DNA from: Elusimicrobiota bacterium
GTDB lineage: Bacteria; CAYTYR01; UBA6262
Direction: 5' to 3'
Length of the DNA stretch: 64,000 nt
Assembly: GCA_003153935.1 (NCBI GenBank)
Contig: PMCA01000034.1
Span: 561 to 64,560, forward strand
The notes beneath the pieces were generated by a model that searched no databases, had not been told where the DNA came from, and worked only from the letters and a program-made list of their open reading frames with translations. The position numbers and the translations under genes are program-made. Positions within the stretch are counted from its first letter, which is position 1. Each line of letters starts with the position of its first letter. Of the stretch, positions 2,920 to 36,780 are shown piece after piece.

Positions 2920-2923
2920 AACC

Positions 2924-2945
2924 TGTCTCGGATTGATTTCTTGGT
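2924..2945 (+). repeat. Truncated copy of the 100-bp palindromic repeat
   Basis: tgtctcggattgatttcttggt is identical over 22 nt to the reverse complement of the 3' end of the 16585-16684 copy. Confidence 0.75.
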
Positions 2946-2959
2946 GATTTAGGAGCCTT

Positions 2960-9414: not shown

Positions 9415-10017
9415 ATGCCGGAACAGGTAAAATTCAAGAATAGAAGAAAAAGGCTGATCATCGCCAGAAGCCTGCAATTCCGCTATGTAAGCGTGGTTTT
9501 GCTGGCTATGCTGTTCGTGGCATTGCTGGAAGGATTTATCGTTTATAAAACCATCTGGAACGAGTTGCTGGCGGAATCACGCTACAGCGACTGGGCTCCA
9601 TTACTGACCTCGGTCATGAAAAAAGCTGATCTCCGGATAATGTTCGGGCTGGTCGGCTCGATCGCGGTCATGCTGATCATCAGTATTTATATGTCCCATA
9701 AAATAGCCGGTCCGATCTACCGCATAAAGAAATTCATGGTGGAAGCGGCCAAAGGGGACCTGAGCTTCGAGCTGCGCCTGCGCAAGGGCGATGAGCTGAC
9801 CGACCTGGTAGACGAGTTCAACCTGATGGTTAAGGGGCTCCGGTCCATTATCAGCCAGGACCGTGAAAAGGTGGGCGGGATAATGCGGGAAGCGGAAGAA
9901 ACGCTGATGATCGTTAACCGCGCTACGGTCACCGCCGATGAGAAGAAACAGACTGCGGACCATCTCAAGAGCCTGATCGTTAAACTTAAAGATATCACGG
10001 GTCAATTCAAAGTATAG
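9415..10017 (+). CDS. Membrane protein with HAMP domain and short coiled coil
   Basis: Two TM helices; SHKIAGPIYRI...GDLSFELRLRKGDELTDLVDEFNLMV (HAMP); no kinase or full MCP domain. Confidence 0.8.
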   Translation: MPEQVKFKNRRKRLIIARSLQFRYVSVVLLAMLFVALLEGFIVYKTIWNELLAESRYSDWAPLLTSVMKKADLRIMFGLVGSIAVMLIISIYMSHKIAGPIYRIKKFMVEAAKGDLSFELRLRKGDELTDLVDEFNLMVKGLRSIISQDREKVGGIMREAEETLMIVNRATVTADEKKQTADHLKSLIVKLKDITGQFKV

Positions 10018-10453: not shown

Positions 10454-11950
10454 ATGAAAATATTATTAGCCGGATATAATTTAGATACAGACGTCATCAA
10501 AGACCTGACTAAGGGCGATCCGCTGCGTGCCGATGTCACGCCGGAAACCCTTTCCGCCGCTTACGCGCGCATCAGCCGGGATCCCCGCCCGGTGGATGAA
10601 CTGCGGCAGGCCGCCCGCGCCGAAGTAGAGAACGCCCGCAAATCCAACAAAAGCATTATCTTCAAGATGGGGCATCATTCCGTCGCCGAACACGCCGTCT
10701 TTAATTTCGACATTATCGGCGTCTCCCGCCTGGCCCTGGAAGAGCTGGAAAAATTCCGCCTCTGTTCCTATACCGAAAAATCCCAGCGTTACATCACCCT
10801 GGCCGATGATTACATAATCCCGCAGGAATTGAAGATGAGCCAGTTCATCAGGGAATACACCGCGACCATCCAGCTGCAGAATGATTTTTATAAGCGCGCT
10901 TTTGAGGCCCTGAAAAATTACATTAACTACAAGCACCCGGAAGAGGCCAAGGATCCCAAGAAGCAGATCCTGCTGGAGGGCTGGGCCAAGGAAGACGCCC
11001 GTTACATCACCAGTCTGGCCACCGCCGGCCAGTTAGGGGAAACGATTAACGCCCGTAACCTCGAACTGGTCATCAGGCGTTTTGCCAGCCATCCTCTGCG
11101 GGAAGTGCAGGAGATCGGCCGCAAAATGTACAACCTGGTCGCCGGCGTTGCACCCTCGATCATCATATTTACCGAAGCCAACGAATTCGACCAGAAAACC
11201 TATCCGGCGTTAAAACATTTGAGTGAAACTATCCTGCATGCCAAGCAGATAGTGCCTGAGTCCTATCCAGGGGAGGTCAGCCTGGTGGATTACAGCCTGC
11301 ATGGGGACGACCTGCTGGTGGCTTCCATGATGCATACCACCAGTAAGATCCCGTACCGGCAATGCCTGAACTTGGTGCGGTTGCTGAAACCCGAACAGAA
11401 GAAGGAATTTATCAAAACTGCCTGCCAGCACCTGCAGTTATATGACTCCACTTTACGGGAGTTTGAATATCCGTCCATGACCTTTGAGCTGAATATGTCG
11501 GCGAGCTGTTTCGCCCAGTTCAAACGGCACCGTTTAGCCACTATTACTACCCAGGAATATAATCCTGACCTGGGCGTGGTCATACCTCAGGCTATCAAGG
11601 AAGTCGAAATGGACAAGGAATTCAAGGAAATTATCGACAAGACCAATGAAGTATATAAGAAGATATACGCTTCATTCCCATTAGCCGCGCCTTATATCCT
11701 GACTAACGCCCACCAGCGCAGAGTCCTTACGAAAGTGAACGCCCGGGAGCTATATCACATGTCCCGCCTGCGGGAAGATGAGCACGCGCAGTGGGAGATC
11801 AGGCAAAAGACCGCCAAGATGAGCGAGCAGGCCAAGAGGGTTATGCCCCTGACCATGCTTTTGATGGGCGGCAAAGACTCCTACCCTAAAGTTTACGAGC
11901 AGGAATTCGGCCATCCTCCGAAAGTAGTCAACCCGGTTCTTCCCACCTGA
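10454..11950 (+). CDS. thyX: FAD-dependent thymidylate synthase, tandem two-domain form
   Basis: GHHSVAEHA, SYTEKSQRY, EDARY, NARNL (domain 1); KRHRL, NARELYHMSRLREDEHAQWEIR (domain 2). Confidence 0.88.
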   Translation: MKILLAGYNLDTDVIKDLTKGDPLRADVTPETLSAAYARISRDPRPVDELRQAARAEVENARKSNKSIIFKMGHHSVAEHAVFNFDIIGVSRLALEELEKFRLCSYTEKSQRYITLADDYIIPQELKMSQFIREYTATIQLQNDFYKRAFEALKNYINYKHPEEAKDPKKQILLEGWAKEDARYITSLATAGQLGETINARNLELVIRRFASHPLREVQEIGRKMYNLVAGVAPSIIIFTEANEFDQKTYPALKHLSETILHAKQIVPESYPGEVSLVDYSLHGDDLLVASMMHTTSKIPYRQCLNLVRLLKPEQKKEFIKTACQHLQLYDSTLREFEYPSMTFELNMSASCFAQFKRHRLATITTQEYNPDLGVVIPQAIKEVEMDKEFKEIIDKTNEVYKKIYASFPLAAPYILTNAHQRRVLTKVNARELYHMSRLREDEHAQWEIRQKTAKMSEQAKRVMPLTMLLMGGKDSYPKVYEQEFGHPPKVVNPVLPT

Positions 11951-12571: not shown

Positions 12572-13384
12572 TTGAAAGAATTTTTGAAAGAAGCCATCGC
12601 GGTGGCGCTGAAAAGCGGAGAGATGATTCGCCGGCATGTAGGAAAAGCCAAAGATATCTCTTTTAAAGGGGCGGCCGACCTGGTCACGGATGTGGACAAG
12701 AGGTCCGAAGCCCTGATCAAAAGCTACCTGGCCAAAAAGTTTCCTACTCACCAGTTCCTGGGAGAAGAGGGTGGGGGAGACCGGACCGGATGTGCTTATC
12801 GCTGGGTAGTGGACCCGATCGACGGCACTACCAATTTCGTCCATGATCTTCCTTATTTCAGCGTTTCTATCGCCTTGGAATCTGACTGTAAGCCGGTCCT
12901 CGGAGTGGTTTACGACCCAGTGCATAACGAGCTATTCCACGCTGTCAAAGGCGGCGGGGCTTTCCTAAATAAAAAAAGCATCAAGGTATCCAAAGTCAAA
13001 GAATTAAAACAATCACTGCTCTGCACCGGGTTCGCTTACGAGCTGAAAGATACCCGGGACTCCAATGTCGAGCATTTCGTGGATTTCCTGCTGGCTGCGC
13101 AGGCGATCAGGCGCCTGGGCTCGGCTTCGCTGGATATGTGCTATGTGGCCTGCGGCAGGTTTGACGGCTACTGGGAAGTAGGGCTGAAACCCTGGGACAC
13201 CGCCGCAGCCCTGATAATATTGAAAGAAGCCGGGGGCAAAGCTACCAAGTTTAACGGCAGCCCTTATTCGCATTACGACCAGGAGATCCTGGTATCCAAC
13301 GGACTGCTGCATAAAAAAATGGAAGACGTGCTGATGCGCCGCCGCCGGGTACGCCACTGCAAGGTTACGTTTGGTAAATACTAA
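12572..13384 (+). CDS. suhB: Inositol monophosphatase family protein (SuhB-like)
   Basis: GEE, WVVDPIDGTTNF, RRLGSASLD, GRFDGYWE, KPWDTAAA; TTG start. Confidence 0.88.
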   Translation: MKEFLKEAIAVALKSGEMIRRHVGKAKDISFKGAADLVTDVDKRSEALIKSYLAKKFPTHQFLGEEGGGDRTGCAYRWVVDPIDGTTNFVHDLPYFSVSIALESDCKPVLGVVYDPVHNELFHAVKGGGAFLNKKSIKVSKVKELKQSLLCTGFAYELKDTRDSNVEHFVDFLLAAQAIRRLGSASLDMCYVACGRFDGYWEVGLKPWDTAAALIILKEAGGKATKFNGSPYSHYDQEILVSNGLLHKKMEDVLMRRRRVRHCKVTFGKY

Positions 13385-16053
13385 TGAAAAAGAAATTGTA
13401 CATAATCGATGGCAACGCTTATATCCATCGCGCTTTCCACGCCCTGCCGATGCTGACCAATTCCCAGGGGCTGGTGATAAACGCTGTTTATGGCTTTACC
13501 AGGACCTTATTAAAGATCATCAAGCGCGACCAGCCCGATTATCTCGCCGTTTGTTTTGACTCGCCTCATCCGACTTTCCGGCACAAAGAATTCGAACAAT
13601 ACAAAGCCACCCGTAAGGAAACCCCACCTGAGCTGAAATCCCAACTGCCCATGGTCAGGGAGATGGTGGAGGCCCTGAACATCCCGGTCTACCAGCTGGC
13701 GGGCTATGAAGCTGATGACCTGATCGCCACTATTGCCCATAAAGTGGAGGAACAGGGCATAGATACCGTTATTGTTAGCGGCGACAAGGACGTCCTGCAG
13801 ATGGTCAATCCGGATGTAAAGGTCCTGACCGAACCCAAAGAAACCATGTTTACCGAGAAAGAGGTAAAGGAGAAATACGGATTCGGCCCCGAGCATATCA
13901 TCGACTACCTGGGATTGTGCGGGGATTCCAGCGATAATATACCGGGCGTGCCCGGCATAGGCGAAAAGACGGCGACCAAGCTGGTCAGCGAATTTGGCAG
14001 TATCGAGAATATTTACGCGAACCTGGATAAACTTCCGGCCGCGGTCAAGAATAAAATGGAAGCCGGACGTGAATCGGCTTTTGCGTCCAAACGGCTGGTG
14101 ACCCTGGTTCAGGACGTACCGGTAGAGGTGGAGCTGGATAAACTGGCGCTTCACCCGATAGACCAGAAAAAGGCGCTGGAGCTGTTTAATAAATACGAAT
14201 TCAAGACCCTGATCACGGAACTGATAGATCAGAAGCAGGATAAGGATACAAATTATAAAGTGCTGGCGGATGGCGCAGGCCTGCGGGAGCTGATCAGCCG
14301 GACAGAGAAGCAAAAGGCAGTATCCGTAGACTTGGAAACGGACTCTGCCGACCCGATGCGCGCTCATTCCGTGGGTATGGTCTTCAGCCTGGGCCCCAAA
14401 GAAGCGTTTTATATACCCACCGCCCACACTCATGCTGCCGCTCCTAAACAAGATAAGAAGAGTACCCTGGAGTCCTTCCGCGGAGTTCTTGAAGATAAGC
14501 AGATTAAGAAATACGGACAGAACCTGAAGTACGACCTGTTGGTACTGCGCAATGAAGATATAACCTTGCGGGGCATATCATTTGATACGATGATCGCTTC
14601 TTACCTCATCAATCCTTCCAAATTCAAACATAATCTCGAAGATATCGTCGCCGAGTACTTGCAATACAAGATGACCCCGATCAGCGACTTGATCGGCAAG
14701 GGGGCTAAACAGATCACGATGGATCAGGTCCAGGTGGAAACCGTATCCGATTATGCCTGCGCCCAGGCGGATATGGTCTGGCGGCTAGTAGAGAAACTAT
14801 CGGGCCTGCTTAAGGAAAGAGATCTGGACAGCCTGTTCTATAAGGTGGAAATGCCGTTGATGGAAATACTGGCGGATATGGAATATGCCGGTATCCTGGT
14901 TGACCTGGGCTATCTGAAGAAATTGGCCGTTGAGTTTGAAGAAAAAATATACGGGCTGGAACAGCAGATATATAAACTGGCCGGTGGTGAGTTCAATATT
15001 AATTCCCCACAGCAGTTGGCCAAGATATTATTCGAGAAGCTGAATTTGCCGGTGATCGAGCGCACCAAAACAGGCGCTTCCACTAACGAATCGGTGCTGA
15101 AGCAGTTATCGTCCAGCCATGAACTGCCCAAGCTTATCATGCAGTACAGGGAGCTGGCTAAGTTAAAATCAACTTACATCGACCCGGTCCCGGAAATGGT
15201 CAATCCCAAAACTGGGCGCCTGCATACTTCCTTTAACCAAACCGTTACCGCCACGGGGCGGTTGTCGTCAAGTGAACCTAATCTGCAGAATATTCCTATC
15301 CGCACCGAGATCGGGCGGTCTATCCGCCGCGCCTTCATCCCTAAAGAGGGCTGCGTCTTCATCGACGCGGACTATTCGCAGATCGACCTGCGGGTCCTGG
15401 CGCATATGTCCGGCGATGAGAATATGAGCGCGGCGTTCCGTAATAACGAGGATATCCACAACCATACCGCCTGCGAAATATTCGGCATCAAACCGGAAGA
15501 GGTGGATGAAGAAAAAAGGCGTATCGCCAAAACAGTTAACTTCGGTCTTTCCTACGGGATGAGCCCGTTTGGGCTGTCGCAGAACCTGGGTATACCTACG
15601 GGCATTGCTAAGGAATACATTGAGAAATATTTTACCCGGTATAAAGGGGTAAAGAAATATATGGAAGATATAGTTAAGACAGCGCAAAAAGACGGGTTTG
15701 TAACCACTTTGCTGAACCGGCGCCGTTATTTGCCGGAGATTAGCGCCAAGAATGGAACGGTCCGGTCATTTGCCGAACGGGTAGCCATTAATATGCCGAT
15801 ACAGGGTACCGCCTCCGACATAATCAAGGTAGCGATGATAAACATAGCGCATCGCCTTAATGCGGAAAAACTGAAAACCAAAATGCTGCTGCAGGTGCAT
15901 GATGAATTAATATTTGAAACGCTTAAAGATGAGGTCACTAAGGTCAAAAAGCTGGTGAAAGAGGAGATGGAAGGGGCAATTAAGCTGGATGTGCCTCTGA
16001 TTGCCAATATTAGCATTGGCGCCAATTGGCGGGACCTGGAGGAAACAGAATGA
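13384..16053 (+). CDS. polA: DNA polymerase I
   Basis: 5'-3' exonuclease (IIDGNAYIHRAF, YKATR, EADD), 3'-5' exonuclease-like domain, polymerase motifs TGRLSSSEPNLQNIP, ADYSQI, AKTVNFG, LQVHDEL. Confidence 0.98.
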   Translation: MKKKLYIIDGNAYIHRAFHALPMLTNSQGLVINAVYGFTRTLLKIIKRDQPDYLAVCFDSPHPTFRHKEFEQYKATRKETPPELKSQLPMVREMVEALNIPVYQLAGYEADDLIATIAHKVEEQGIDTVIVSGDKDVLQMVNPDVKVLTEPKETMFTEKEVKEKYGFGPEHIIDYLGLCGDSSDNIPGVPGIGEKTATKLVSEFGSIENIYANLDKLPAAVKNKMEAGRESAFASKRLVTLVQDVPVEVELDKLALHPIDQKKALELFNKYEFKTLITELIDQKQDKDTNYKVLADGAGLRELISRTEKQKAVSVDLETDSADPMRAHSVGMVFSLGPKEAFYIPTAHTHAAAPKQDKKSTLESFRGVLEDKQIKKYGQNLKYDLLVLRNEDITLRGISFDTMIASYLINPSKFKHNLEDIVAEYLQYKMTPISDLIGKGAKQITMDQVQVETVSDYACAQADMVWRLVEKLSGLLKERDLDSLFYKVEMPLMEILADMEYAGILVDLGYLKKLAVEFEEKIYGLEQQIYKLAGGEFNINSPQQLAKILFEKLNLPVIERTKTGASTNESVLKQLSSSHELPKLIMQYRELAKLKSTYIDPVPEMVNPKTGRLHTSFNQTVTATGRLSSSEPNLQNIPIRTEIGRSIRRAFIPKEGCVFIDADYSQIDLRVLAHMSGDENMSAAFRNNEDIHNHTACEIFGIKPEEVDEEKRRIAKTVNFGLSYGMSPFGLSQNLGIPTGIAKEYIEKYFTRYKGVKKYMEDIVKTAQKDGFVTTLLNRRRYLPEISAKNGTVRSFAERVAINMPIQGTASDIIKVAMINIAHRLNAEKLKTKMLLQVHDELIFETLKDEVTKVKKLVKEEMEGAIKLDVPLIANISIGANWRDLEETE

Positions 16054-16445
16054 TCCGGAAACTTATATATTGGCTGGCCAGCTGGCTGGGGATATTTATC
16101 AGCTCGATCTGGATGATATTTGTTACCGGGCAATTCGTGACCGGAGCCGATATTGGGTTTATCAACTACCTGATGCAATTGTTCGGGGGATTGATGCTGG
16201 TATTTACGGTCCTGATAGCCATCAGGCGGCCGGTATTAGGCGGAGCATGGCTTTTTACAGAAGGATTTTTATTTATAATGTTTTGTCGGTACAAAGGAGT
16301 ATTAACAGCGCCGAATTTATTTAATGGACTGGCGCCGATGGTAGTGGCGTTGTTGTTCCTGGTCTCACAGCGGGGATACACGAATGAGCCGCCGCTGATC
16401 ATTCCCGAACCAGATAAGGAACATCAATATAAATTCCCGGAGTGA
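16050..16445 (+). CDS. Small 4-TM hypothetical membrane protein
   Basis: ATGA overlap with the polA stop; four hydrophobic segments. Confidence 0.7.
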   Translation: MIRKLIYWLASWLGIFISSIWMIFVTGQFVTGADIGFINYLMQLFGGLMLVFTVLIAIRRPVLGGAWLFTEGFLFIMFCRYKGVLTAPNLFNGLAPMVVALLFLVSQRGYTNEPPLIIPEPDKEHQYKFPE

Positions 16446-16458
16446 TATCGCGCGGGTC

Positions 16459-16564
16459 CTGTCTCAGGTCAATTTCTCGGGCCATCATGGTTTTCGAGAC
16501 TTCTTGGAAGTACCAACTTGCTCTCGAAAACCAGATGTCTCTTTCGAAATTAACCTTTCGCCAC
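16459..16564 (+). repeat. About 100-bp palindromic repeat, copy 1 (diverged)
   Basis: Shares tgtctc, catcatg.ttttcga and tcgaaaaccagatgtctct..cgaaat.aacc..tcg.cac with copy 3. Confidence 0.8.
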
Positions 16565-16584
16565 CCCCGCTGGTTATGAGCGGT

Positions 16585-16684
16585 GTGTTGAGTGGTTGAT
16601 TTCGACGAGGCATTTACTTTTCGAACCAAGGCTCTTGACGCTTATTTCGAAAAGTATAATGACCAAGAAATCAATCCGAGACAC
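16585..16684 (-). repeat. 100-bp palindromic repeat, copy 2 (inverted)
   Basis: Its reverse complement matches 17544-17643 at 87 of 100 positions without gaps (manual count). Confidence 0.92.
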
Positions 16685-16715
16685 AAGCCGCTCAGATGAG
16701 TTTAAATGGAGTTTT

Positions 16716-17537
16716 ATGCCTGAATTGCCGGAAGTGGAAACAGTACGACGAGCTTTGGAGAAAAGGATCATCGGCAGGAAAATACTGGCCGTGGAATCCA
16801 ATTTTCCTAAAATAGTCTCGACTCCTTCATTTAAAACCTTTGCCAGTCAGATCAAGGGCAGTAAAATTGAGGCTATGTTCCGCCGGGGTAAGTTCCTGAT
16901 ATTCGACCTGAGCGGCGGCCTGTCCATGATCTCGCACTTGCGCATGACCGGACACTGGCTGGTGACAAAGAACCTGCCCGATAGCAAATTCATCCATCTT
17001 AAACTTAAATTATCCGATGGCCATACACTGGCTTACAGCGATATCCGCAAATTCGGCCGCATCTGGCTGATCGAGCGCCAGGATTTCGCGTTGTTCAAAC
17101 CTTTTGCCAAGCTGGGTATTGAACCTCTGTCAAAGGGGTTCACCATGGAAGCATTCTCAGGGAGGCTGGCTAAATACAAGAACAATATAAAGCAAGTATT
17201 GCTTAATCAGCAGGTTGTGGCGGGTCTGGGAAATATTTATGTTGATGAGGTGCTCTTTTCGGCAGGGGTGCGGCCGTCAAGGAAAGTGCCGAGCTTAACC
17301 AAAACTGAAATATTGAAAATATTCAAGGCCATCAGGCGGATTTTGGCACTGGCGATAAAGCATGGTGGAACCACGGTGGAGAATTTTACGACACCGGAGG
17401 GCGGCACCGGGTATTTCCAGAATAAGCTGAAAATATATGGCAGAAAAGGCCAGAAGTGCTATAATTGTAAGGGAACGGTCAGCCGGATAGTCATCGCCGG
17501 CCGGGGAACGCATTTTTGTAAGAGTTGTCAAAAATGA
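16716..17537 (+). CDS. mutM: Formamidopyrimidine-DNA glycosylase
   Basis: MPELPEVETV start, RRGKFL, HLRMTG, GLGNIYVDE, C-terminal zinc finger CYNC...GRGTHFCKSCQ. Confidence 0.97.
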   Translation: MPELPEVETVRRALEKRIIGRKILAVESNFPKIVSTPSFKTFASQIKGSKIEAMFRRGKFLIFDLSGGLSMISHLRMTGHWLVTKNLPDSKFIHLKLKLSDGHTLAYSDIRKFGRIWLIERQDFALFKPFAKLGIEPLSKGFTMEAFSGRLAKYKNNIKQVLLNQQVVAGLGNIYVDEVLFSAGVRPSRKVPSLTKTEILKIFKAIRRILALAIKHGGTTVENFTTPEGGTGYFQNKLKIYGRKGQKCYNCKGTVSRIVIAGRGTHFCKSCQK

Positions 17538-17543
17538 GTAAGG

Positions 17544-17643
17544 GTGTCTCGAATTGATTTCTTGGACATCATGATTTTCGAAATAAGCTTCAAGAGCCTT
17601 GGTTCGAAAACCAGATGTCTCTGCGAAATCAACCACTCGACAC
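17544..17643 (+). repeat. 100-bp palindromic repeat, copy 3
   Basis: Nested stems gtgtc/gacac, ttgatttc/gaaatcaa, gacatc/gatgtc, ttttcgaa/ttcgaaaa. Confidence 0.92.
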
Positions 17644-17663
17644 CCATCTACGGGGACTAGCAC

Positions 17664-18245
17664 ATGTTAAAGATCGGATTAACCGGAAATATCGCATCGG
17701 GCAAGAGTACGGTGGCGGAGGTTTGGCGGAAGATGGGGGCCGAGATCATCGATGTGGATGAGTTGGCGCATGACCTCTATAGGCCGCGCAGCGTTATCTG
17801 GCGGAAAGTGTTCAAAGCCTTCGGTCCGGATATTGTTAGAAACGATAAAACTATCAACAGGGCAATATTAGCCGCTCTGGTATTCTCTGACCGCAAAAAA
17901 CTGAAAAAGCTGGAGAAGATAATGTATCCGGCCATAGTCAAAGAGCTGAAAAGGCAGATGGCACAGGCCAAAGGCAAAATAGTGGTGGCTGATATGGCTA
18001 TCCTCTTCGAAGCCCGGGCGCAGAAACTTTTTGATAAGATAGTATTAGTTAAGGTATCCAAAGCCAACCAGGTAAAACGGTTACTCAAAAGCCGGAAACT
18101 TACAAAATCCCAGGCGCTGAGCAGAATAGGCGCTTTTAAGTCCCAAACCGGCAAAATAACCCAAAGCGACCACACAATTGACGGTAACCTGCCCCTGATC
18201 CGCATGCAAAAGCAGGCCCGGGAATTATTTAGAAAAATACCTTGA
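17664..18245 (+). CDS. coaE: Dephospho-CoA kinase
   Basis: IGLTGNIASGKSTV P-loop, INRAILAALVF; polA-mutM-coaE synteny. Confidence 0.93.
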   Translation: MLKIGLTGNIASGKSTVAEVWRKMGAEIIDVDELAHDLYRPRSVIWRKVFKAFGPDIVRNDKTINRAILAALVFSDRKKLKKLEKIMYPAIVKELKRQMAQAKGKIVVADMAILFEARAQKLFDKIVLVKVSKANQVKRLLKSRKLTKSQALSRIGAFKSQTGKITQSDHTIDGNLPLIRMQKQARELFRKIP

Positions 18246-18270
18246 CGAAAGGGCGTTTTTACAGTATAGT
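18242..18270 (+). promoter_or_regulatory. Sigma70-type promoter for rho
   Basis: TTGACG (18242-18247), 17 bp, TATAGT (18265-18270). Confidence 0.75.
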
Positions 18271-18423
18271 ATATGAAACATTAATACTGCTTTTAAGTCC
18301 ACAGGAGTTCTCTCCATTTTAACAGCATGTCATTAACACAATCCAAAACAGCAAAACCCTGAGTATTGATCGCTATATAGCAATATTACGGTTTGGTACG
18401 TATTTATAACGGGAGGAAGTAAA

Positions 18424-19707
18424 ATGGAAAATGCAGCACAAGGTGCAGCGTTAGATATGGCTGCTTTGGCAAAACGGACTGTTTCCGATCTGACGGAGAT
18501 AGCCAAAGACCTGAAAATGGAATCAGTCAGCGGGCTGAAAAAGCAGGAGATCATCTTTAAGATCCTGCAGGCCCAGACTGAAAAAAGCGGCCTGATCTTC
18601 GATGAAGGCGTCCTGGAGATATTGCCGGACGGCTTCGGTTTTTTACGCTCGCCGCAATATAACTATTTAGCCGGGCCGGACGATATTTACGTTTCTCCCA
18701 GCCAGATCCGCCGTTTCGACCTGCGCAAAGGCGATACCATCAGCGGCCAGGTCAGGCCTCCCAAGGAAGGCGAGAGATATTTCGCCCTGCTGAAGATCGA
18801 GGCGGTCAACAGCGCCAACCCCGATGACATCAAAAAAAGAATTCTATTCGATAACCTAACTCCCTTATATCCGCAAGCCAAGCTGAACCTGGAAACCACC
18901 CAGGAAGAGATATCCATGCGCATCATGGACATGTTCACCCCGATAGGCAAGGGCCAGCGCGGCCTGATAGTATCCCCGCCGCGGGCCGGCAAGACCATTC
19001 TCCTGCAAAAACTCGCCAATGCCATCAGCACCAATCATCCGGAAGTATCCCTGATAGTCCTATTGATAGACGAGAGACCGGAAGAAGTGACGGATATGCA
19101 GCGGTCGGTCAAGGGAGAGGTAATTTCCTCCACTTTTGACGAGCCGAGCGAACGGCATATCCAGGTGGCCGAAATGGTTATAGAGAAAGCGAAAAGGCTT
19201 GTAGAACAGAAGAAAGATGTGGTAATATTACTGGACAGCATAACCCGGTTAGCCAGGGCTTATAATGCCACGGTCCCGCCCAGCGGCAAAGTGCTCAGCG
19301 GTGGCGTGGATTCGAATGCCTTGCAGCGGCCCAAGAGGTTCTTTGGCGCCGCTCGTAATATTGAAGAGGGTGGCAGTCTGACGATCATGGCTACGGCGCT
19401 GGTAGAGACCGGCTCCCGCATGGACGAAGTCATATTTGAAGAATTTAAGGGTACCGGCAACATGGAAATGATCCTGGACCGCCGGTTGGTAGACAAGCGA
19501 GTGTTCCCGGCCCTGGACATCAACAAGTCCGGCACGCGGCGCGAGGAATTACTGCTCAGTGAAGATGAATTGAACAAGGTCTGGATCCTGCGTAAGGTGC
19601 TCAATACCTTAAGCGTGGTAGAGACCATGGAACTGGTAGCGGAAAAGGTACGCAAGACTAAGAGCAACAAGGAATTCCTGAAATCGATGGAATTCAACGG
19701 CAGATAA
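18424..19707 (+). CDS. rho: Transcription termination factor Rho
   Basis: [59 protein letters not shown]. Confidence 0.98.
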
Positions 19708-36144: not shown

Positions 36145-36780
36145 TTGGTTAAAATAAAAATTTGCGGTATAACCTGCGCGCAGGATGCGACCTGGGCGGT
36201 AAATTTAGGGGCGGATTTTATTGGATTAAACTTTTTTAAAGATAGTCCAAGAAAAGTTTCGCCCCAAAATGCAATGGAGATAATCCAGCAGCTGCCTCCC
36301 TTTGTGTCCGCGGCCGGAGTTTTCGTCAACGAGGAGCAGAAAGAGCTGGTCAAGATCGCCCGCAAGCTGGGGCTGAAGATGATCCAACTGCACGGTGACG
36401 AGAGTCCAGATTATTGCCGCCAGCTGAAGGAAGCCTTACCCGAGGCCAAGATCATCAAGGCTTTCCGCATCCAGGATGAGGCCAGCCTGGCCCCAATGTC
36501 ATCTTTCAGCGAAGCGGCCGACTATTTCCTGCTGGATGCCTATGTGCCGGAGATACCCGGTGGGACCGGCGTTACCTTTAACTGGGAACTGGCGGTAAAA
36601 GCTAAAGAGCTCGGGAAGCTGGTTTTCCTGTCCGGCGGACTAAACCCGGAAAACATCCAGGAAGCCATTGAGAAAGTCAAGCCGTTCGCGGTAGACGTTT
36701 GCAGCGGCATCGAGCGCTCGCCAAAACGCAAAGATTACGACAAGATGAAAGATTTTATTACGAAAGCGAAGCAGGTTTAA
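36145..36780 (+). CDS. trpF: Phosphoribosylanthranilate isomerase
   Basis: KIKICGIT, QLHGDE, GGTGVTFNW, LSGGLNPEN, VDVCSGIE. Confidence 0.96.
   Translation: MVKIKICGITCAQDATWAVNLGADFIGLNFFKDSPRKVSPQNAMEIIQQLPPFVSAAGVFVNEEQKELVKIARKLGLKMIQLHGDESPDYCRQLKEALPEAKIIKAFRIQDEASLAPMSSFSEAADYFLLDAYVPEIPGGTGVTFNWELAVKAKELGKLVFLSGGLNPENIQEAIEKVKPFAVDVCSGIERSPKRKDYDKMKDFITKAKQV

Follow-up and report, generated by a model that had tools for sequence, protein, structure and literature searches.

Within a stretch of 64,000 nucleotides from an uncultured bacterium of permafrost and peat metagenomes (hereafter the window), in which 66 of the 68 open reading frames lie on the forward strand and are separated by very short gaps, the gene for formamidopyrimidine-DNA glycosylase, mutM, is bracketed by copies of an imperfect palindrome of about 100 bp. 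The locus raises the question of what this repeat is, be it a mobile element, a functional RNA hairpin or a host site on the DNA, and of whether the housekeeping gene that it surrounds has any part in its spread. The nearest named relatives of the MutM protein are found in Elusimicrobiota MAGs, at about 60% identity, which gives the organism a tentative placement, and the same contigs are also present in the NCBI MAG GCA_003154495.1.

The repeat family around mutM

As reported in a preliminary description of this DNA, three full copies of the repeat are present: copy 1 at 16459–16564 (forward strand), copy 2 at 16585–16684 (reverse strand) and copy 3 at 17544–17643 (forward strand). Copies 2 and 3, described there as inverted repeats of one another, are indeed complementary without gaps at 87 of 100 positions (repeat finder; blastn E = 9e-31) and form arms of 100 nt each that lie 859 nt apart. 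The element spans 100–107 bp, contains no open reading frame and has two arms that pair over 32 positions. Copies 2 and 3 both belong to subfamily I, with stem variants B and A, respectively, and score 112.3 and 110.5 bits against the R1 covariance model. Copy 1, which aligned to the family through both arms in blastn and differs in its loop, represents subfamily II, characterized by the family arms and a loop of its own (87.9 bits, E = 1.7e-21).

The copies are inserted in a compact series of genes comprising polA (13384–16053), the gene for a DUF7670 membrane protein (16026–16445), mutM (16716–17537, forward strand; Pfam PF01149, PF06831 and PF06827), coaE (17664–18245) and rho (18424–19707). 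Copy 1 starts 13 nt past the stop codon of the DUF7670 gene, the left end of copy 2 is located 31 nt 5′ of the mutM ATG, and copy 3 lies 6 nt past the mutM stop codon and 20 nt ahead of the coaE ATG. Copies 1 and 2 fill the largest gap near mutM, and copy 3 occupies most of the 126-nt gap between mutM and coaE. Between copies 2 and 3, mutM is a resident housekeeping gene that lies outside the element. Copies 1 and 2 are adjacent and in opposite orientation, as had been stated, but the pair previously called head-to-head is tail-to-tail in the orientation of the element, its right ends abutting, and the likeness to a BIME that had been drawn from it holds for the arrangement only. The open reading frames of the window serve housekeeping functions, for example obg, proB, thyX and polA, and include a his operon at about 24.8–30.6 kb, a trp operon at about 30.7–38.8 kb and a sugar-nucleotide/polysaccharide cluster at about 45–63 kb. 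The thyX frame (10454–11950) encodes 498 amino acids, about twice the usual length, with two Thy1 stretches, which suggests a tandem-fused ThyX; the long form is also found in the relatives L001 and L018.

A fourth, partial family member, additional to the three copies of the preliminary description, was found at 2923–2949 (forward strand). It is a solo left end of 26 nt (CTGTCTCGGATTGATTTCTTGGTGATT; 26 of 27 positions in blastn, with an exact match to the terminus) and lies between proB and the next gene, directly 5′ of the ribosome-binding site of the latter. An exhaustive covariance-model search revealed no other member in the window, and about 14 kb of additional sequence, reached through the genes at the two ends, contained no more copies. 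A weak covariance-model match at 36189–36283 (reverse strand; 19.8 bits) lies inside trpF, forms a modest hairpin and bears little resemblance to the family, and was dismissed as a chance match.

The family extends well beyond this locus. One scan of JGI metagenome contigs with a terminus pattern identified four additional full copies in unrelated contexts, located after a VIT1 gene (L006:3319–3418), before an RDD gene (L006:1–95), after lexA (L009:675–774) and before an LTD-domain gene (L014:114–213), as well as further solo ends at L010:11087–11112, L006:2576–2600 and L006:131–154. On L010 (11022–11112), the solo left terminus lies downstream of a histidine-kinase gene and has a promoter-like TTGACA-17-TATTCT after it; the two other solo left ends are located directly upstream of ribosome-binding sites. 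All copies lie between genes, and the unlinked copies of the species of the window are 86–93% identical. In contigs of four DNA runs aligned on copy 3, the summed depth was about 90 (about 65–97) inside the element and about 4 in the unique flanks, a difference of about 20-fold, and at least 15 distinct flanking sequences were found in Logan contigs from DNA and RNA runs; the repeat therefore forms a multicopy family, and it is a family that breaks assemblies. Next to the right end of the 100-nt element, at L015:4460–4650 and L014:1–70, lies a second family of repeats, about 190 nt long and with a very stable predicted fold (about −98 kcal/mol). Its motif TACCGGAGCCGACCGC also occurs in loose ends of other contigs, and neither an Rfam match nor a copy in the window was found for it.

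The taxonomic range of the 100-nt family is narrow, comprising two related peat/permafrost species. The terminus pattern TGTCTCNNATTGATTTCTTGG had no match in 185,579 GTDB species representatives, and a composite pattern, which recovers seven of the eight full copies, gave 54 matches in unrelated taxa among the same genomes, all of which are due to chance (best nhmmer E = 0.23). Viral contigs gave two chance matches only, and no blastn match to the family was found in plasmids, in phages or in 5,426 E. coli genomes. The genomes of E. coli hold ERIC and REP sequences, and the plasmid, phage and E. coli collections are rich in IS ends. A search of Rfam returned no element-associated match at E ≤ 10 in 15500–18500, none at the gathering score in the whole window and none for the counterparts of the repeats in a sister species (L015). 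The suspicion that the family is undescribed is thereby borne out: it is a lineage-restricted family, new in sequence and not in kind.

The hairpin and its compensatory changes

Every copy folds, as had been proposed, into one long imperfect hairpin, with energies of −30 to −41 kcal/mol and z scores of −4.5 to −6.6 relative to dinucleotide shuffles (−35.8 kcal/mol and z = −5.6 for copy 1). The extension of the copy 2 stem noted earlier, through TGAGCGG at 16577–16583 and its partner CCGCTCA at 16688–16694 (both given on the forward strand), lowers its energy from −36.3 to −53.5 kcal/mol. Copy 1 is likewise framed by an outer GC clamp, read from the sequence as GCGGG at 16452–16456 and CCCGC at 16566–16570 (forward strand), which forms in the DNA fold of 16450–16570. 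Indeed, an outer clamp of the GCGG/CCGC type is found 1–4 nt beyond the ends of five copies, and one of the GAGCGG/CCGCTC type also flanks L009, L014, L015up and one Logan contig. Insertion into a pre-existing small GC hairpin was considered as the origin of the clamp and discarded: no empty GAGCGG-loop-CCGCTC hairpin was found in about 100 kb of DNA from the lineage, and the clamp therefore belongs to the element and not to its target.

The seven full copies share the same single hairpin on either strand (RNAalifold). On the consensus structure, 96% of the cells are standard pairs and 10 of the 32 pairs have changed on both sides. None of 500 shuffles attained the pairing, the double changes or the covariation score of the real alignment, and when the partners were slid by 1–3 columns the pairing fell to 29–60%. 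The compensatory changes named in the preliminary description are real, namely that of CATC/GATG to CATT/AATG, that of TGG/CCA to TAC/GTA and the extra G–C pair of copy 1, which carries two further double changes. A three-pair switch from CATC.ATGG/CCAGATG to CATT.ATAC/GTAAATG separates stem variant A (copies 1 and 3, L006a and L015up) from stem variant B (copy 2, L009, L014 and L006b). Covariation was still significant in the shuffle test after the addition of four unlinked or orthologous copies from metagenomes, on a small basis of 7–9 alignable copies in which the three stem changes that distinguish variant A from variant B always occur together and may represent a single event. Bulges, an internal loop and one G–T pair are conserved in every copy, and this retention of the bulges and the G–T pair disfavours simple copying of one arm to the other as the source of the compensatory pattern.

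These data show that the feature preserved in the family is the hairpin and not the exact sequence. The earlier proposal that covariation points to selection on structure thus stands as far as the preservation of the hairpin is concerned, but a functional RNA is not thereby indicated, since REPINs, which are REP doublets that form hairpins and are mobilized by RAYT tyrosine transposases, show such covariation too (Bertels & Rainey 2011, PMC3116915).

The best-conserved part of the element is its 25-nt terminus TGTCTCGGATTGATTTCTTGG, which is also found alone, three times directly upstream of genes. Were this terminus the recognized unit, the repeat could be a host site acting at the DNA level, either as a structural site or by binding a protein of the nucleoid or of DNA topology; gyrase and IHF sites have been proposed for REP and BIME sequences. 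The asymmetries of the stem (bulges and G–T pair), kept in all copies, would be in keeping with such a site. A binding site, however, leaves the compensatory changes of the inner stem unexplained and has no known protein partner here, and decay would produce solo ends just as well (PMC3116915). A host site of this kind is consequently regarded as very improbable.

Relatives and transcription

The history of the insertions can be read from two relatives. In a sister species (L015/L016), whose MutM is 85% identical, two positional counterparts are found at mutM. That of copy 2 (L015:4653–4759) is full-length and diverged, agrees with copy 2 in orientation and in its distance upstream of mutM, and has the flank CCGCTCATA in common with it, and that of copy 3 (L015:5620–5685) is an internally deleted form of about 65 nt in the same place downstream of mutM. 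The gene upstream of the L015 locus differs and encodes a SpoU methylase. Since counterparts occupy the same positions in a species with a MutM of 85% identity, the insertions of copies 2 and 3 are old. In the more distant relative L018 (GCA_002441095.1; MutM 62% identical), the order polA-DUF7670-mutM-coaE-rho is kept, no family member was found and the gap between the DUF7670 gene and mutM is 48 nt, compared with 270 nt in the window. The argument made earlier that mutM is not mobilized cargo is strengthened by this relative, which has the same gene order without the elements; mutM was therefore there first, with the repeats as later but old arrivals.

Other small repeats and variants were observed in these loci. 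L018 contains, at 10823–10920 in the mutM–coaE gap, an unrelated palindrome of heptamer repeats (TAGCGNN/NNCGCTA), that is, a different hairpin at the same spot as copy 3, and short repeats of the CGCAAC type at 9953–10000 in the gap upstream of mutM. In another sample of the species of the window (L017:6313–7678), the elements are identical, the DUF7670 gene is split into two open reading frames and mutM is truncated to 235 amino acids, which may reflect either frameshifts of the strain or assembly errors.

Between the species of the window and its sister, mutM is 78% identical at the DNA level and 56% at third codon positions, and the arms of the repeat are 74–84% identical, with unrelated loops. 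The conservation of the arms between species thus clearly exceeds the near-neutral level given by third codon positions. Across the family, the arms are 74–94% identical and three unrelated loop types occur. The identity of copy 2 to its positional counterpart (69%) is below that among the unlinked copies of the species of the window (86–93%), which points to turnover or homogenization within the genome.

Several assembled metatranscriptome contigs match the locus exactly. They cover the 3′ end of the DUF7670 gene with copy 1 (16369–16569), copies 1 and 2 together (16437–16687), the 3′ end of mutM with copy 3 (17336–17641), copy 3 with both of its flanks (17511–17661) and copy 3 into coaE (17606–17851). 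The contig with copies 1 and 2 reached a depth of 10.5 in one run, in which mutM was unassembled, but the depth of a contig says little about expression, and carry-over of DNA is possible. These unstranded contigs show that the copies are co-transcribed with their neighbours and read through. Neither a T run nor a promoter-like or terminator-like site was found on the elements. An intrinsic terminator was rejected on this ground and because RNA contigs continue past copy 3 into the leader and gene of coaE; promoter function was rejected likewise, there being no promoter-like site on the elements.

The place of the copies relative to the genes is regular: forward copies lie 3–17 nt after stop codons and reverse copies 27–50 nt before start codons, and the ribosome-binding site is always left free. 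This placement, the covarying stems and the coverage of the elements by RNA contigs, sometimes at greater depth than that of the neighbouring genes, speak for an RNA hairpin that functions in cis, such as an RNase III site or a barrier to exonucleases, which would set the stability of neighbouring cistrons and for which dispersal would be secondary. The presence of a palindrome of another kind in the mutM–coaE gap of L018 is in line with such a role, and Correia and ERIC repeats are known to affect mRNA processing (PMC3184786). A recruited element of RNA stability or processing is the main rival to the interpretation preferred below. On the other hand, both orientations occur within one direction of transcription, only three of nine copies fold more stably on the transcribed strand, wobble pairs are neither confined to nor concentrated on one strand, no Rfam family matches and the depth of the contigs is subject to the reservations given above. 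No signal of selection on RNA specifically was thus found in the strand stability of the nine copies or in the wobble pairs. Furthermore, the fold remains just as significant when DNA parameters are used (z = −4.0 to −6.7) and, given this and the low proportion of copies with the more stable strand transcribed, selection is no less likely to act on a strand-symmetric DNA hairpin than on RNA. A primary function as an RNA hairpin is therefore considered unlikely.

Mobility and comparison with known systems

No target-site duplication above chance was detected at any of the eight copies analysed, even with shifting boundaries; the best flanking direct repeats, of 3–5 nt, are no better than those at random positions, and TA flanks are found at no copy. 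In agreement with the earlier statement that the window lacks a transposase, none of its 68 open reading frames contains a transposase, integrase or Y1 (Y1_Tnp) domain. Four DNA runs contained no insertion polymorphism, element-skipping contig or excision joint at the locus, and the idea that mutM is inverted or excised by way of copies 2 and 3 was rejected, as these runs showed no joints. In one DNA contig (record 24 of Logan run X5; window 16585–16966), the right flank of the L014 copy runs directly into copy 2 and mutM; this contig may have arisen from recombination between two 92%-identical copies in some strains or be an assembly chimera through the repeat.

MITEs are small, non-coding and intergenic, have terminal inverted repeats and form long hairpins, and they are defined with target-site duplications (PMC3184786). 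A classical MITE would be a deletion derivative of an insertion sequence with a DDE transposase, sharing its terminal inverted repeats and mobilized by a cut-and-paste or a copy-paste mechanism. The terminal inverted repeats, the variable core, the size of less than 200 bp, the lack of coding capacity, the long hairpin, the intergenic location and the internally deleted forms of the present family all agree with this description (PMC3184786). However, target-site duplications (none at eight of eight copies) and TA flanks are both missing, and no cognate insertion sequence with the ends of the element, TGTCTCGGATTGATTTC...GAAATCAAC...GACA, was found in the window, the compared loci, plasmids, phages or E. 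coli. The inverted repeat also spans nearly the whole element, with compensatory changes deep in the stem, and a transposase that reads the termini needs neither. An origin as a classical MITE is accordingly judged improbable.

Two other candidates were discarded by inspection. The location of copies beside mutM, polA and lexA had prompted the idea of a LexA (SOS) box, but no box of the CGAAC-N4-GTTCG type was seen, and the copy at lexA lies downstream of the gene. Integron attC sites have RYYYAAC...GTTRRRY core sites and a uniform orientation at the 3′ ends of cassettes; the arms of the repeat (..GAAATCAAC.. / ..GTTGATTTC..) do not fit this core consensus, both orientations occur and the genes flanked are conserved housekeeping genes.

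Taken together, the repeat is probably a small, non-autonomous and lineage-specific palindromic element, most similar to REPINs (or else a MITE that makes no target duplication) and passive in its effects on mRNA. This assignment is favoured because the set of features matches that of REPINs (PMC3116915) and fits classical MITEs less well. The element would measure about 100 bp without and about 120 bp with the outer GCGG/CCGC clamp, and consist of two inverted arms of about 40 nt and a freely replaceable loop. It may have spread, now or formerly, as selfish DNA by a hairpin-dependent route that leaves no target-site duplication, served in trans by an enzyme putatively encoded elsewhere in the genome, by analogy with REPINs and the RAYT enzymes of the Y1/HUH type that act on single-stranded DNA. 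The solo 25-nt ends would then be decayed remnants, and the copies within a genome may have been homogenized by re-insertion or gene conversion. Hairpins next to stop and start codons would probably exert secondary, passive effects on the processing or stability of the mRNA; the elements would act neither as terminators nor as promoters, nor would they mobilize mutM.

Several points weigh against this REPIN-like interpretation. No mobilizing enzyme was found in the window, and the four DNA runs gave neither an insertion polymorphism nor an excision joint at this locus. The insertions of copies 2 and 3 are old, so that the family may no longer be mobile. The arms lack the form and tag of REP palindromes, the alignable copies are few, and the regular placement at stop and start codons could reflect a host function instead of neutral insertion. 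Indeed, this regularity and the conservation of the elements at the flanks of mutM in two species raise the possibility of domestication. A hairpin replicator without target-site duplication, perhaps dependent on a different or new enzyme of single-stranded DNA and perhaps partly domesticated as punctuation of operon mRNA, is a conceivable but doubtful variant. The family explains assembly breaks in this organism, provides a specific marker of the lineage and constitutes a compact test case of whether a hairpin is conserved for transposition, at the DNA level, or for the fate of the mRNA, at the RNA level. The understanding of mutM is unchanged, as the gene is a resident that simply has an insertion on either side.

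Most of what is known about small palindromic repeats comes from cultured Proteobacteria, Firmicutes and cyanobacteria. The earlier assignment of the present repeat to a REP- or MITE-type family is valid for the general class of small palindromic repeats, but not for a MITE in the strict sense, for want of target-site duplications, or for a REP in the strict sense, on account of size and tag. REP sequences are palindromic units of 20–40 bp, one end of which carries a GTAG or CGTC tag that stays unpaired (PMC3733652). The family resembles the REPs and BIMEs of E. coli in consisting of extragenic palindromes, in the adjacent opposite copies (copies 1 and 2) and in being transcribed within operons, and differs from them in forming a single hairpin of 100 nt with the ends [G/C]TGTCTC...GACA[C/T] and no GTAG or CGTC tag.

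Among bacterial MITEs, Correia/NEMIS of Neisseria, ERIC of Enterobacteriaceae and RUP of S. pneumoniae (PMC3184786) share with the family a size of about 100–150 bp, terminal inverted repeats, a long RNA hairpin, intergenic location, co-transcription, and the occurrence of subfamilies and internally deleted forms. In contrast to these elements, the copies described here have no target-site duplication and no TA flank, and neither an IHF site nor a promoter was detected. No sequence similarity to ERIC was found in the E. coli genomes; for Correia and RUP, whose hosts lie outside the collections searched, the comparison of TA flanks was negative.

In REPINs, the ends are REP sequences tied to a single-copy gene for a RAYT (a Y1 transposase) that is itself flanked by them, and to our knowledge no REPIN-RAYT system is known in a deep-branching lineage related to Elusimicrobiota. 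The ends described here lack both the form of a short REP palindrome and the GTAG or CGTC tag, the 64 kb and the additional fragments yielded no RAYT gene, and the host is an uncultured, tentatively Elusimicrobiota-related bacterium and not a proteobacterium. On the other hand, REPINs have inverted conserved ends, a spacer, a hairpin, common compensatory changes, solo-end remnants and extragenic locations, and lack target-site duplications (PMC3116915). The likeness extends to a pair of conserved inverted ends that enclose a spacer of lower conservation, a hairpin of about 70–110 nt in single-stranded DNA or mRNA, compensatory changes, solo ends, extragenic sites without target-site duplication, long vertical persistence and the occasional clustering of copies. 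With its arms, loops, compensatory changes, remnants and co-transcription, the family displays the lifestyle of small palindromic repeats in an uncultured lineage of peat and permafrost.
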